Origin: Promethearchaeota archaeon
GTDB lineage: Archaea > Asgardarchaeota > Thorarchaeia > Thorarchaeales > Thorarchaeaceae
Length of the DNA: 11,059 nucleotides
Direction: 5' to 3'
Assembly: GCA_048939765.1 (NCBI GenBank)
Contig: JBHLPF010000049.1
Coordinates: forward strand, 1 to 11,059
Both the position numbers and the translations under genes were made by a program. Position 1 is the stretch's first letter. The number at the start of each line of letters is the position of its first letter. The notes under the pieces are model-generated. The model did no database searches and had not been told where the DNA came from. It was given only the letters and a program-made list of their open reading frames with translations. Shown piece by piece: positions 2,951-8,578 of the stretch.

Positions 2951-4225
2951 TTGGTTGCAGAGATTATAGTCACAGTGTTTGTAATCACATACCTCGCCAT
3001 TTCGTCTGAGAAAGTGAATAGAACTGCTACTGCACTGCTGGGCATGGGTGTTGTAGGAATCGTCCTCTGGGCTACTGGCACAGCAGGGTTCGACGAAGTA
3101 TCAGATCGTATCGAATGGACAACCATCCTATTTGTGACCTCTATGTTCATCATAGTCACAATAGCAGCATCTTCAGGAATGTTTCAGTACCTAGCGTTGG
3201 AACTCACGAGGCGTACAGAAGGCGCAACGAAACGCCTTTTCGTATCACTGCTTGCCTTTGTGTTTGTCATTTCCCTTTTCTTTGATACCACATCCACGAT
3301 GCTCATAATGGGACCTCTTACAATAGAGATATGCAAAGCTCTTGAGATCGATTTCAGACCATTTCTGATATCAGAGGCGGTCACATGCAATTTCGCATCA
3401 ATTCCCTCAATTGTAGGAGCAGTACCGAATTTGCTCGTGGCTGAAGAAGCAGAAGTTGACCCAGGTCTCTTGTTTGAGCTTCTGATGCCCCTCTCGGTGA
3501 TTCTATTCGTGGTTTCTGTACCATTGCTCCTACGATTCTTTGATGAACAACTCAAGCCCTCTGAGGAGTATCTTGTTTCTCAAATGATGCTCATCAATCC
3601 CCAATACATGATACGATCGAGATCGGATTTCTACCTCTCGATAGTCGCAATGATCATCCTTGTACTCGGATTCACTCTGGGCCCTGCCACAGGACTACAG
3701 CCCGCAGTAGTTGCGATAGCAGTGGCTGCTGGGCTTCTTATACTCGCACGTGAATGGGTCGATGAGATTTTGAAACGTGTCAACTGGGGTACTATTTTCT
3801 TCCTAATAGGACTGTTCGGGCTCATTGCTGCACTGCAATTGGTTGGCATAATAGTAGCCATAGGAGAGGCAATTGATGGTCTAATTCAGGGAAATGTGCT
3901 GCTTGGCATAGTCTTCATGGTTTGGGTACCAGCACTTCTATCTGCAGTCATTGACAACATTCCAGTTTCAGCTGTTCTAGCACCTATTGCCGCACAGTTT
4001 ACAGTAGTCAGTCCTCTTCTCGCCATCGCGCTCATATTTGCAGTCAATGTCGGTGGATTTCTTCTTCCAATCGGCGCACCGGCTAACATCTTGGCATTGG
4101 CGCTCTCTGAGAAAGAACACAAACCAATCAAGATGGTTGAGTTCGCCAAGATTGCCACTCCTCTCGGATTTCTGATGCTGGCGATTGGAACCGGATGGTT
4201 ATTGCTGCTAGGGCTAGCAGTATAA
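2951..4225 (+). CDS. ArsB/NhaD-type (IT superfamily, P-protein/SLC13-like) permease, paralog 2
   Basis: 424 aa. TTG start preceded by a strong GAGGTGA SD (2938-2944). Same motif set as paralog 1 (ISSEKVNRT, IEWTTILF, SGMFQYLA, SAVIDNIP, PIGAPAN). Confidence 0.9.
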   Translation: MVAEIIVTVFVITYLAISSEKVNRTATALLGMGVVGIVLWATGTAGFDEVSDRIEWTTILFVTSMFIIVTIAASSGMFQYLALELTRRTEGATKRLFVSLLAFVFVISLFFDTTSTMLIMGPLTIEICKALEIDFRPFLISEAVTCNFASIPSIVGAVPNLLVAEEAEVDPGLLFELLMPLSVILFVVSVPLLLRFFDEQLKPSEEYLVSQMMLINPQYMIRSRSDFYLSIVAMIILVLGFTLGPATGLQPAVVAIAVAAGLLILAREWVDEILKRVNWGTIFFLIGLFGLIAALQLVGIIVAIGEAIDGLIQGNVLLGIVFMVWVPALLSAVIDNIPVSAVLAPIAAQFTVVSPLLAIALIFAVNVGGFLLPIGAPANILALALSEKEHKPIKMVEFAKIATPLGFLMLAIGTGWLLLLGLAV

Positions 4226-4298
4226 GAAGAAGGCGGCGCCCCGCCCCCGTCGTGTGCCGCCGGGAGGACAGAACTCAACGGAGACTGGACACCGGGTT
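4226..4298 (-). ncRNA. Candidate small structured RNA (long G.U-rich hairpin), family unknown
   Basis: Minus-strand 5' arm CGGUGUCC-A-GUCUCCGUUG-A-GU-U-CUGUC, loop CUCCC, 3' arm GGCGG-C-AC-A-CGACGGGGGC-G-GGGCGCCG. This gives 18 Watson-Crick pairs, 7 U.G pairs, 3 mismatches and no bulges. It is followed by UUCUUCUU and preceded by a TATA-like box about 25 nt upstream. Transcription is inferred, not shown. Confidence 0.5.
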
Positions 4299-4310
4299 GT
4301 CAGTATGTGC

Positions 4311-4323
4311 AAAGGCTATTAGC
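4311..4323. promoter_or_regulatory. BRE/TATA-like element AAAGGCTATTAGC, possibly bidirectional
   Basis: Purine-rich AAAGG followed by CTATTAG about 45 nt upstream of ATG 4364. The core GCTA-T-TAGC is dyad-symmetric and lies about 25 nt from the 5' end of the minus-strand hairpin. Confidence 0.45.
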
Positions 4324-4363
4324 AATATGGGTTGTGACATGCGCAGCGGAGAAAGAGAAGTCA

Positions 4364-4858
4364 ATGCCAAAGCGAGCTCGATGCCCCCATTGTGACCGAC
4401 TGTTCAATCGGGATGTGCTTGACGCTCACATCCAAAAATGTAGAACTCGGAACAGGAAGAGCATCGAAGAAGCAAGAACTAGAAAGAAGAATCTGGTACT
4501 TGACGGGAACAACATCGCATATCATCTCGCACCAGCTGGCAAGCCAAGAGTTGCTAATCTTGTCCTAGCAAGACAGAGTCTTGTCACCTCTGGCTACAGA
4601 CCAGTTACTATCGTGTCAGCGGCGCTAATCCACAAGATTGACAAGCCAGACAGACTCCGGGAGATGATTGACTTTGGATATATTATTGAGGCACCAAGAG
4701 GGAAGAATGACGACCTCATCATCATTCAGACTGCACAGCAATCAAATGCAGATATTGTGAGCAACGACAGATTCCTTGACTGGCAGGAGAGATTTCCTTG
4801 GATCTCCAATCGTCTGAGAAGATATCGGATGACTCCTTCAGGCCTGATTCTGACTTGA
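4364..4858 (+). CDS. Zc3h12a/Regnase-1-like NYN (PIN-like) ribonuclease with N-terminal C2HC zinc finger
   Basis: LVLDGNNIA, PRGKNDDLIII and IVSNDRFLD...FPWI match the RNase_Zc3h12a acidic catalytic motifs. N-terminal CPHC-x11-H-x3-C. ATG 4364 (MPKRARC, 164 aa) is preferred over GTG 4307 because the upstream extension overlaps the TATA-like box. Confidence 0.85.
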   Translation: MPKRARCPHCDRLFNRDVLDAHIQKCRTRNRKSIEEARTRKKNLVLDGNNIAYHLAPAGKPRVANLVLARQSLVTSGYRPVTIVSAALIHKIDKPDRLREMIDFGYIIEAPRGKNDDLIIIQTAQQSNADIVSNDRFLDWQERFPWISNRLRRYRMTPSGLILT

Positions 4859-4938: not shown

Positions 4939-6726
4939 ATGCTTGCCCACGAATTGAGAGCGCTTTACTTGAAGTTCTTCAAAGGGAAGAAACATGCAAT
5001 AATAGGCTCTGCGTCGCTGATGCCAGAGAATGATCCAACTGCGCTCTATGTCATGGCAGGCATGCATCCACTCATGCCCTTCCTGCTAGGCCAGCCTCAT
5101 CCTGAGGGGAAACGCCTGGCTAACGTCCAGAAGTGTATTCGAACCATAGACATTGACGAGGTTGGCGACACAACACATCTCACATTTTTCGAGATGCTGG
5201 GAAACTGGAGCCTCAATGACTACTGGAAGAAAGAGGCGATAACATGGAGTTACGAGTTCCTCACATCCAAGAAATGGCTGGGATTTGCCCCGGAGAAACT
5301 TTCAGTCACTGTGTTTGAGGGTGATGATGATGCACCGAGGGATGATGAAGCAGTTGGGGTATGGCGGTCTGTGGGGATTCCGGATGAACGCATCTATTAC
5401 CTTCCGAAGGAGGACAATTGGTGGGGTCCCCCTGGCAAAGTAGGGCCGTGTGGACCATGCACGGAGATGTTCATTGAGGTGGATGAGATTCCGAGGTGTG
5501 GCTCTGATTGTAAGCCTGGATGCAACTGCGGACACTTTGTAGAGGTCTGGAATGATGTATTCATGGAATACAACTTGAAAGAGGATGGCAGCTTCGAGAG
5601 ATTGGAGCAGAGGAATATTGACACTGGCATGGGAGTAGAGAGGACTGTAGCCATGCTTCAGGGAGTTCCATCTGTCTTCGAAATTGAGCTTTTCACTCCA
5701 CTTATTGAGAAGATCAAGATGCTCTCAGGAAAAGATGTGATGTCTGAAGAGGAAGACCGGCTTACAAAGATAATATCCGACCATGTCAAGTCAGCTGTTA
5801 TGATCATGGCGGATGATGCTCATATTGCCCCCTCAAATGTAGAACATGGATATATCGTGCGGAGGCTATTGAGAAAGGCGATTCTCAGCGCAGACAAGCT
5901 TGGCATCGGCAAGGGATTCATGGATGCACTCGCCGACATAACAATCGAGATGTACAAAGACGTCTACGAAGAAGTTGAAAGGAATCGCGACTTCATAAAG
6001 AAAAACTTGGAGAGTGAAGAGGCTAAATTCCGTAAAACATTACGGAAGGCACTTGGAAAGTTTGAGCGCATGTTCCAAGAAAATGGGGCAATCACAGGGA
6101 AGGATGCGTTTCTTCTATTCACTAGCTTCGGACTCCCTCTTGAGATGACAAGGGACTTGGCTCAAGAGAAGGGCATAGAGATTGACGTCGATGTGTTTCG
6201 GAAGGAGTTTGAACATCACAGAGATATATCTAGGACGGCGACTGAGGGAAAGTTCAAGGGCGGCCTTGCGGACCATGGCGAAGAACACACAAAGCTCCAT
6301 ACAGCAACTCATCTGCTGCAAGCAGCACTGAGAAAGGTACTTGGCGACAAGGTACAGCAGAGTGGTAGCAACATCACAAAGGAGCGGCTTCGATTTGATT
6401 TCACATTCGATCGCAAGCTTACACCAGAAGAAGTGCAGCAAGTAGAGGACCTGGTCAATGGTATTATCAGAGACGACCTAGAAGTCACAAGGCAGTTCAT
6501 GCCTTATGATGAGGCCATAGCTCAAGGTGCGATGGCATTCTTCAAGGAGAAATATGGAGACACAGTTTCTGTGTATTCTGTGGGCGATTTTAGCATGGAA
6601 CTCTGTGGTGGACCCCATGTCGAACGAACTGGTATACTCGGCAATTTCAAAATTACCAAACAAAAGAAGATTGGTGCTGGAATCATACGAATTCGTGCGA
6701 TTCTTGAGCCTCTTGACGCATCCTAA
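4939..6726 (+). CDS. alaS: Alanine--tRNA ligase, short form (aminoacylation + editing domains, no C-Ala domain)
   Basis: 595 aa. Motifs DPT....AGM, QKCIRT.DIDEVG...HLTFFEMLGNWS, DNWW..GPCGPC.E, EVWNDVFM, IDTGMGVER, PSN...GY.VRRLLR, editing HTATH and ELCGGPHV, and GIIRIRA just before the stop. Confidence 0.98.
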   Translation: MLAHELRALYLKFFKGKKHAIIGSASLMPENDPTALYVMAGMHPLMPFLLGQPHPEGKRLANVQKCIRTIDIDEVGDTTHLTFFEMLGNWSLNDYWKKEAITWSYEFLTSKKWLGFAPEKLSVTVFEGDDDAPRDDEAVGVWRSVGIPDERIYYLPKEDNWWGPPGKVGPCGPCTEMFIEVDEIPRCGSDCKPGCNCGHFVEVWNDVFMEYNLKEDGSFERLEQRNIDTGMGVERTVAMLQGVPSVFEIELFTPLIEKIKMLSGKDVMSEEEDRLTKIISDHVKSAVMIMADDAHIAPSNVEHGYIVRRLLRKAILSADKLGIGKGFMDALADITIEMYKDVYEEVERNRDFIKKNLESEEAKFRKTLRKALGKFERMFQENGAITGKDAFLLFTSFGLPLEMTRDLAQEKGIEIDVDVFRKEFEHHRDISRTATEGKFKGGLADHGEEHTKLHTATHLLQAALRKVLGDKVQQSGSNITKERLRFDFTFDRKLTPEEVQQVEDLVNGIIRDDLEVTRQFMPYDEAIAQGAMAFFKEKYGDTVSVYSVGDFSMELCGGPHVERTGILGNFKITKQKKIGAGIIRIRAILEPLDAS

Positions 6727-7549: not shown

Positions 7550-8578
7550 TTGGAACCAGTCCTACTAGGTGTATTGCTCATCATCAGCTTCCTTGTCGCT
7601 TTTGCCATTGGAAGTAATGACGAAGCAATGGCACCGGCTGTTGGGGCGAAAGTCTTCACAGTCAACATAGCTGTTGCCATTGGCGGCTTAATAACCATGT
7701 TAGGGGCAGTCACTATGGGCGGCAATGTTTCTGAGAAAGTTGGCTCTGACTTGGTCAGGGGCTTGACACTTTCCCCAGAGATGGTGTTTGCCATTCTGAT
7801 ATCAATGGCTATTTGGCTATTGATAGCATCCGCAACCAAAGGACTTCCGATTAGTACGACACAGTGTATAGTAGGGTCTGTGATTGGTGTAGCCATATTC
7901 GCGCCCGTAATGGGATATGTCGGATGGGGTGCTGAGGCGGTAGACTGGTTTGTTGTGCTGGAGGTATTTGCAGGATGGATAATCTCGCCAGTAATTGGCT
8001 TCTTCATCGCTGCAGCAGTCTTTGCGATGGTAAGACGCATCCAGAAAAGAGCAGAAGGACTATCTGACTTCGAGAAACAGGAGAGGATTGCTTCTTACGG
8101 TCTAGCGGCCTTTTTGATATGGACTGCCTTGAGTAGGGGAGGGAATGACGTAGCCAATGCTATAGCCCCTATTGTAGTGCTTCCCGATTTCCAAGGCACG
8201 GTCGAGTTTGGGATCATTATTCTACCCACGGTGTTGTTACCATTACTCATTGGCGGTTTTGGTATGGCGCTGGGACTGATCATAATTGGTAGAAAGGTGA
8301 TTAGAACACTTGCGACTGAAGTTGTGACTCTTTCTCCTTCTTCAGCACTCGCTGCGAGTATTTCTGTGGCATTGATAATGTTTGTAGGAACTCTTCTTGG
8401 ATTGCCTCTTAGTGGAACCCACGTCCTTGTTGCAGCGCTAATTGCGGTGGGGTGGGTGTCAGAAACGCCTGTTCAGATGAAACAAGTAAAGGACATTCTG
8501 ATATCGTGGATTATTACCGTACCAATCTCGGCAATTCTTGGAATGGTAGTGTTCGCAGTGATTCTTGGGTTCGTCTAG
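7550..8578 (+). CDS. PiT/PHO4 family inorganic phosphate (anion) transporter
   Basis: 342 aa hydrophobic protein with two inverted repeats: GSND / GLPISTTQ.IVG and GGNDVANAIAP / G..VIRTL / GLPLSGTH. TTG start with an AAGGAG SD upstream. Confidence 0.92.
   Translation: MEPVLLGVLLIISFLVAFAIGSNDEAMAPAVGAKVFTVNIAVAIGGLITMLGAVTMGGNVSEKVGSDLVRGLTLSPEMVFAILISMAIWLLIASATKGLPISTTQCIVGSVIGVAIFAPVMGYVGWGAEAVDWFVVLEVFAGWIISPVIGFFIAAAVFAMVRRIQKRAEGLSDFEKQERIASYGLAAFLIWTALSRGGNDVANAIAPIVVLPDFQGTVEFGIIILPTVLLPLLIGGFGMALGLIIIGRKVIRTLATEVVTLSPSSALAASISVALIMFVGTLLGLPLSGTHVLVAALIAVGWVSETPVQMKQVKDILISWIITVPISAILGMVVFAVILGFV

Follow-up and report, generated by a model that had tools for sequence, protein, structure and literature searches.

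The RNase_Zc3h12a domain (PF11977) is the nuclease domain of the Regnase/ZC3H12 and KHNYN/N4BP1 proteins. The acidic catalytic site of Regnase-1 is formed by D141, N144, D225, D226, S242, D244 and D248, and the enzyme prefers pyrimidine-purine-pyrimidine triloops. Endoribonuclease genes adjoin structured RNA genes in the type III toxin-antitoxin systems (ToxIN, CptIN and AbiEi-like RNA antitoxins), in which the antitoxin is a set of tandem RNA repeats upstream of the toxin gene on the same strand. These systems are patchy and mobile, and the toxin never occurs without its antitoxin. The bacterial Y RNA gene beside rsr (Ro60-related) is an RNA gene beside a proven protein partner, and the Staphylococcus Rsa RNAs carry a UCCC motif. 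In the 6C small RNA (sRNA), C-rich loops bind mRNA targets directly (PMC6486639). Prokaryotic members of PF11977 have been catalogued as being of unknown function (PMC5499597). Here, we describe a locus of a Promethearchaeota archaeon of the Thorarchaeia, within a stretch of 11,059 nucleotides (assembly GCA_048939765.1, contig JBHLPF010000049.1; hereafter the window), where a hairpin on the minus strand faces the gene for a C2HC-zinc-finger NYN ribonuclease on the plus strand.

The hairpin is selected as an RNA on the minus strand, and its gene is previously undescribed. We give an even chance to the explanation that it is a small RNA gene in its own right, acting through its C-rich loop, that lies beside a core gene for a Regnase-fold RNase and, in this genus, is promoter-coupled to it.

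A minus-strand hairpin RNA with a C-rich loop

The 61-nt hairpin (4234-4294, minus strand), the body of the candidate small RNA, comprises 25 base pairs in blocks of 8, 10, 2 and 5, three single mismatches and a 5-nt loop, CUCCC, at 4262-4266. The minus-strand fold of 4230-4298 reaches -38.3 kcal/mol (z -3.12), a value equaled by none of 200 dinucleotide shuffles, in agreement with the hairpin called in a first-pass annotation of this DNA. On the plus strand, the same bases gave -27.0 kcal/mol (z 0.01), a fold no better than those of the shuffles.

Other genera have a recognizable version of the hairpin 5' of their NYN gene, and it differs by many U.G/C.G/U.A exchanges. Across an alignment of 35 copies, 89.6% of the cells are paired and 10 pairs have changed on both sides. 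None of 500 shuffles matched the covariation score of this alignment, and a control with slid pairing partners left only 34-60% of the cells paired. The signal is specific to one strand, since 90.8% of the cells pair on the RNA (minus) strand versus 67.3% on the complement, and the wobbles on the RNA strand comprise 201 U.G versus 18 G.U. Covariance model R1 gives 89.6 bits for the hairpin of the window and ~90 bits for hairpin loci; the loci of two relatives, read on the opposite strand, score 18-19 bits. Within the RNA, conservation is highest in the apical 13-mer GUCCUCCCGGCGG (4257-4269, minus strand), which contains the loop and is identical in 32 of the 35 aligned copies (13 genera). Rfam covariance models gave zero matches at the hairpin at E values up to 1.

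According to model R1, the hairpin is single-copy per genome and occurs in 61 of the 87 Thorarchaeia genomes, representing 13 of 17 genera. A pattern scan of ~185,000 species genomes points to the same group: of the 80 stretches listed, 24 pass the model, all from Thorarchaeota-type metagenome-assembled genomes (MAGs). An occurrence outside the Thorarchaeia was rejected, as the remaining listed stretches are chance matches in GC-rich bacteria that fail the model.

Promoter and terminator signals of the hairpin gene were read as motifs, with the tRNA promoters of this genome as a comparison. A TATA-like box lies ~26 nt upstream (23-33 nt before the first stem G) on the hairpin's strand in all 35 copies and in every genus with the hairpin, and these boxes resemble the tRNA promoters, such as GCTAAAAG before tRNA-Ala. 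No minus-strand gene lies upstream of the hairpin on that strand. Behind the stem, a U-rich run follows in all 35 copies, with 5-6 U in many relatives. The pyrimidine/U-rich 3' tail of the window, GCC followed by UUCUUCUUAUAC (4220-4233, minus strand), overlaps the stop codon of the neighboring permease gene (4223-4225) and is the likely termination zone; a consensus scan found a terminator-like site at 4248-4229 on the minus strand. We propose that 4220-4294 (minus strand) may be the gene for a Thorarchaeia-specific structured RNA of ~65-75 nt, little more than the hairpin, which would be transcribed away from the neighboring C2HC-NYN ribonuclease gene.

At 4226-4236 and in relatives, a terminal 7-bp stem (GGYGUCC/GGRCRCC) is followed by R-C-C in most copies and then by the U-run. 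This end of the hairpin is acceptor-stem-like, with a discriminator plus CC. A tRNA-like minihelix was considered on this basis; AlaRS reads G3.U70, and position 3:70 of the hairpin is U.G or C-G, not G.U.

The apical loop is not confined to the hairpin. A second conserved RNA of ~100 nt with the same loop lies on contig C87 (~21300-21400, minus strand), flanked by a tRNA gene on one side and a methyltransferase-EF-2 gene pair on the other, and was compared across loci L165-L194 (around position 1501). Its outer stems, GGAGA/UCUCC and GACCCGC/GCGGGUC, covary, and its hairpin is capped by GCGUCCCUCCCGGCGG, the apical motif described above with one extra C. The exact 15-mer of this RNA occurs once each in 49 of the 87 Thorarchaeia genomes (reversed control, 0), and a search of 400 Asgard genomes located the 14-mer in 51, each a member of the Thorarchaeial family; the RNA was not found in 314 other Asgard genomes. 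It is also present in genera without the NYN-linked hairpin, and Rfam at E values up to 1 gave zero matches at its position. Motif CCTCCCGGCGG has three occurrences in this genome, where 0.9 are expected. Since the second RNA shares the loop, the apical stem-loop serves at least two RNAs as a module, and since that RNA lies beside unrelated genes, the function of the loop is not specific to the NYN locus.

A third short hairpin with the same apical motif, CCCUCCCGGCGG, was observed on contig C69 (~7835-7870, plus strand). The possibility that the hairpin or the second RNA is a piece of signal recognition particle RNA or RNase P RNA was rejected because both of these RNAs lie elsewhere in the genome.

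CCUCC is found both in the loop CUCCC with its flank and at the 3' end of 16S rRNA, GGAUCACCUCCU (the anti-Shine-Dalgarno sequence), and the g4 variant of the hairpin carries UCACCUCCU. The working part of the RNA would be the C-rich loop common to the second Thorarchaeial RNA. The sharing of this loop and the CCUCC of the 16S tail suggest that the RNA most likely pairs with G-rich, Shine-Dalgarno-like mRNA sites or binds a protein common to both RNAs. Complementarity of at least 12 nt to antisense targets in the same genome was not in excess, and 12-mers were at or below chance. The locus resembles the C-rich-loop, base-pairing sRNAs 6C and Rsa of Gram-positive bacteria in three respects: its stable hairpin presents an invariant loop rich in C (CUCCC, which includes UCCC), the RNA has motifs for a promoter of its own and for a U-rich end, and more than one RNA of the genome carries this loop. 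It differs from them in its archaeal host and in its single long hairpin in place of several, and no sequence or Rfam relationship links it to them.

The C2HC-NYN protein and the dyad box

The gene at 4364-4858 (plus strand) encodes a protein of 164 residues with a C2HC zinc finger (residues 7-26) and a Zc3h12a-type NYN ribonuclease domain (residues 41-147), as delineated with Pfam, a PDB profile, AlphaFold2 and Foldseek. The Pfam model RNase_Zc3h12a (PF11977) matches residues 41-147 with an E value of 5.6e-14 and 52.6 bits (cut-off 23), while zf-C2HC_2 matches residues 5-27 weakly (E value 1.6e-4), its 21.7 bits being under the cut-off of 27. The motifs DGNN, NDD and SND..D reported earlier are all present in the window. 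C7, C10, H22, C26, D47, G48, N50, D116, D117, S133, N134 and D135 are invariant in 33 orthologs. Of these, D47, N50, D116, D117, S133 and D135 align with the catalytic site of ZC3H12C, and the Asp, Asn and Ser residues aligned with the catalytic site of Regnase-1 are likewise kept. The last Asp of SND..D (D139) is present in the window; unlike in Regnase, this catalytic position is not kept throughout, being G, N or K in some orthologs.

A profile of the orthologs aligned over the whole domain with ZC3H12C (1.6e-6), KHNYN (7.6e-6) and ZC3H12A (2.4e-5), and also with ZC3H12B. The AlphaFold2 model has a predicted local distance difference test (pLDDT) score of 87.7, and the structures ranked 1-11 by Foldseek are ZC3H12B/C, KHNYN and MCPIP1 (E values 1.8e-8 to 2.6e-7, template-modeling (TM) scores 0.62-0.67, the top matches at 0.65-0.67), followed by PRORP. 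The NYN domain is of the Regnase type and has the same fold as these proteins, although identity to the solved structures is only 21-23% in the Foldseek alignments. The architecture is not that of Regnase proper: the sole finger is C2HC and N-terminal, whereas Regnase has a CCCH finger directly C-terminal to the NYN domain, and the short protein has no KH, UBA or CCCH parts.

The NYN ortholog is single-copy and occurs in 73 of the 87 Thorarchaeia genomes and in 23 of the 24 high-quality ones; named homologs come from Candidatus Thorarchaeota MAGs. It is a near-universal, vertically inherited core gene before alaS, the alanyl-tRNA synthetase gene, and does not have the profile of a mobile defense or toxin gene. 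Five genomes of the same genus lack a full NYN match. Three of them (G004, G008 and G014) also lack an alaS match and the other two have an alaS or NYN fragment at a contig end, and these genomes were set aside as uninformative controls for the hairpin. In the wider group, 176 of 400 Asgard genomes have PF11977 domains, which come in several architectures, versus none of 14 control prokaryote genomes. Many of the Asgard domains lie in open reading frames (ORFs) of ~580 residues, some of up to ~1000. A diverged second NYN paralog with 36% identity and in-frame stops, probably a pseudogene, was observed in two genomes of one genus (G017, contig C3, 243108-243479; G092, contig C6, 22962-23369).

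The hairpin and the NYN gene lie around the dyad-symmetric, TATA-like box GCTATTAGC (4315-4323, both strands), a candidate shared promoter element whose arms GCTA and TAGC flank a central T. The box is 23-29 nt 5' of the first G of the hairpin on the minus strand and 48 nt 5' of the NYN ATG on the plus strand, and these distances confirm the head-to-head arrangement described in the first-pass annotation. That annotation also proposed that both genes may be expressed from this one box. In this genus, the use of a single dyad box in both directions is plausible on geometric grounds because the two distances are suitable, the NYN gene of another genus having its own TATA at -49. The claim does not extend further: in other genera the hairpin and NYN genes are 170-250 nt apart and have separate boxes 100-200 nt apart, and therefore a shared box is a feature of this genus and not of the pair. 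The RNA gene and the NYN gene would thus use one dyad TATA box in this genus and separate promoters elsewhere. With a single box, their transcription may be coupled or mutually exclusive.

The box belongs to a 31-nt block (4309-4339, both strands) that extends 16 nt to the NYN side and is near-constant in seven same-genus loci (L001-L006 and L025; one base differs in L025 and L006), while its flanks are variable. The additional 16-nt stretch, AATATGGGTTGTGACA (4324-4339), lies between the box and the expected start of NYN transcription. It is conserved in the genus beyond the needs of a TATA box and B-recognition element, and is a candidate regulator binding site. A sister group within the genus has a perfect palindrome, CTAATTAG, at the dyad box. 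On the plus strand, a Shine-Dalgarno-like GGAG (4348-4351) can be read 12 nt before the NYN start codon, and GGAG or GAGG is found at the equivalent place in most orthologous loci.

Linkage between the hairpin and the nuclease gene

The neighborhood of the two genes raises a rival explanation, which we regard as a tentative possibility: the hairpin RNA may be a dedicated partner of the NYN protein (substrate, decoy, regulator or specificity factor), recognized through the C2HC finger or the NYN groove, and the two would form an RNA-nuclease module. Among 62 strong hairpin matches, 58 share a contig with the NYN gene and are placed on the strand opposite to it, 60-250 nt 5' of its start codon, and two of the four exceptions are contig breaks; the proposed co-occurrence of the hairpin with C2HC-NYN orthologs is thereby borne out in the 13 genera. 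Nor does the hairpin follow the permease genes. In the window, two tandem permease genes of the CitMHS (CitMHS/ArsB-type) family occupy 1328-2824 and 2951-4225 on the plus strand. At the orthologous locus of G017, both are absent and a flavin adenine dinucleotide (FAD) oxidase gene is the neighbor instead, and the hairpin stays beside the NYN gene; in G092, of the same genus, the spacing of hairpin and NYN gene is as in G017. A partnership is further favored by the single dyad box on which both genes would depend in this genus, and by the fact that the solved structures closest to the NYN protein (ZC3H12B/C, KHNYN and MCPIP1) are those of RNases. Stem-loops are preferred by Regnase-1 (PMC5499597). 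Moreover, genomes that lost the hairpin still have the second RNA with the same loop, so that in those genera the nuclease is never without such a loop.

Against a dedicated partnership, the whole neighborhood is syntenic in the family, and adjacency alone therefore cannot separate function from inheritance. Three rearrangements have occurred 5' of the NYN gene, one of which retained the hairpin. At least 12 genomes of five genera have an intact NYN gene without the hairpin, which is missing from all sampled genomes of g6 and g25 and from part of g4, g3 and g28; the zinc finger and the catalytic residues are retained in the NYN proteins of these genomes. In g3, the hairpin is cleanly deleted between conserved flanks. 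Divergent hairpins beside the NYN gene were sought for genera g4 and g6 with a filter-free model search, which was negative at L013 and L018; a diverged copy in G042 and G043 was recognized by eye only. Mapped on the NYN tree, the presence and absence of the hairpin call for five changes (bootstrap range 4-6), of which at least two are forced by strong branches.

The converse case was found in one genome, G075 (L078, contig C341), where the hairpin is followed by 636 nt of DNA with 34% GC up to the contig end and no NYN gene is present there. This DNA has no similarity to the other loci; an insertion, a rearrangement or a join made in the assembly could account for it. Beyond the family, 16 loci of NYN homologs from other Asgard families (small proteins of up to 236 residues, an N-terminal zinc finger being present in six) showed nothing comparable to the hairpin upstream, their best upstream windows reaching -10.6 to -22.8 kcal/mol versus -38.3 kcal/mol here, and a deeper rule linking NYN genes to the hairpin was rejected on these loci. 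The loop itself, all-pyrimidine and 5 nt long, is unlike the triloops preferred by Regnase-1.

Within one archaeal family, hairpin and NYN gene genuinely co-occur, and do so independently of the permeases, but the association is neither obligatory nor deep. Two of the refuting observations named in the first-pass annotation were partly made: orthologous nucleases without the hairpin, and, in one genome, the hairpin without a nearby NYN gene. Of the RNA-nuclease system proposed earlier, the conserved, permease-independent pairing stands; repeated loss of the hairpin, the NYN genes of other Asgard archaea without it and the sharing of its loop elsewhere speak against the rest. We consider that the link between RNA and nuclease would be a conserved neighborhood, possibly with co-regulation, and not an obligatory partnership, since the RNA was lost repeatedly while the nuclease stayed intact.

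Weighing the explanations and significance

Several observations weigh against a stand-alone small RNA with a functional loop. Adjacency in 58 of 62 cases exceeds what such an RNA requires and may point to a functional tie. The existence of a transcript, its ends and its abundance are predictions from motifs, and the U-tail of the window itself (CCUUCUUCUU) is weak. GGAGG-like sites are ubiquitous, so any target of the loop would be tentative. Finally, a protein partner common to both RNAs, perhaps the NYN protein itself, would explain the shared loop equally well. A specific form of the last proposal, in which C2HC-NYN would recognize the C-rich stem-loop (GUCC(C)UCCCGGCGG) of both RNAs and process them or be titrated by them, seems unlikely.

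We consider it very unlikely that the element is not an RNA gene at all and that the palindrome acts at the level of DNA or the nascent transcript, as a terminator of the permease operon, an insulator or a protein-binding site. The palindrome does begin 9 nt past the permease stop codon in most genomes, and a simple scan calls terminator-like sites there, but the wobbles and covariation fit the minus strand only, and a promoter-like box is conserved upstream on that strand. The permease also occurs without the element. A permease terminator in particular is ruled out by a plus-strand fold that equals the shuffles, by the missing T-run after the palindrome on the plus strand and by the persistence of the hairpin without the permease.

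A type III toxin-antitoxin pair, with the NYN RNase as the toxin and the structured RNA as its inhibitor, has in its favor only the general picture of an endoribonuclease gene beside a structured RNA gene, and this analogy of the first-pass annotation is already largely refuted: each genome has one hairpin and no tandem repeat array, the RNA lies on the opposite strand with its own motif-predicted promoter and not in a same-strand upstream precursor, the nuclease fold is NYN and not ToxN/AbiQ-like, the single-copy nuclease is near-universal in fixed synteny before alaS and hence core, not mobile, and the RNA has proved dispensable, lost several times while the nuclease remained intact.

The likeness to Y RNA is an analogy only. 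The candidate RNA is likewise small, with a long stem formed by its ends, a U-rich 3' tail and an adjacent gene for an RNA-handling protein. In contrast to Y RNA, it has no Ro/TROVE protein, tRNA-like domain or homology, and the partnership is proven for Y RNA only.

Both flanks of the pair are occupied by genes on the plus strand. The second CitMHS-family permease gene (2951-4225; PF03600, 3.2e-59), outside the pair, is convergent with the small RNA, and the spacer between it and the NYN ORF measures 138 nt and holds the GC-rich palindrome. The conserved neighbor 3' of the NYN gene is alaS (4939-6726; PF01411, 2e-129, and PF07973). A long ORF lies at the alaS position, at the same distance 3' of the NYN gene, in sampled loci other than those of genus g25; in the relatives this ORF was taken as alaS by position, and the Pfam scan covered the alaS of the window. 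The alanyl-tRNA synthetase of the window has only 595 residues, with the catalytic and second additional domains and without the C-terminal domain according to Pfam. Its gene probably has its own promoter, because a TATA-like TTAAAAT lies ~50 nt upstream.

Neither Rfam nor the literature searched contained an Asgard-specific structured small RNA. The hairpin is a solid new RNA family, since 13 genera conserve it and its covariation is clearly strand-specific, and its invariant C-rich loop is a ready experimental handle. The dyad TATA box for two divergent genes is a neat test case for the directionality of archaeal promoters. If the RNA and the RNase do not interact, the locus still adds a new small RNA of archaea, along with a Regnase-type enzyme that is compact and tractable. 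If they do, stem-loop-directed control of an RNase would be placed before the eukaryotes. Should the NYN protein recognize the loop shared by the two RNAs, the Asgard archaea would have a stem-loop-directed decay circuit of the Regnase type, a forerunner of the Regnase/Roquin-style control of eukaryotes.

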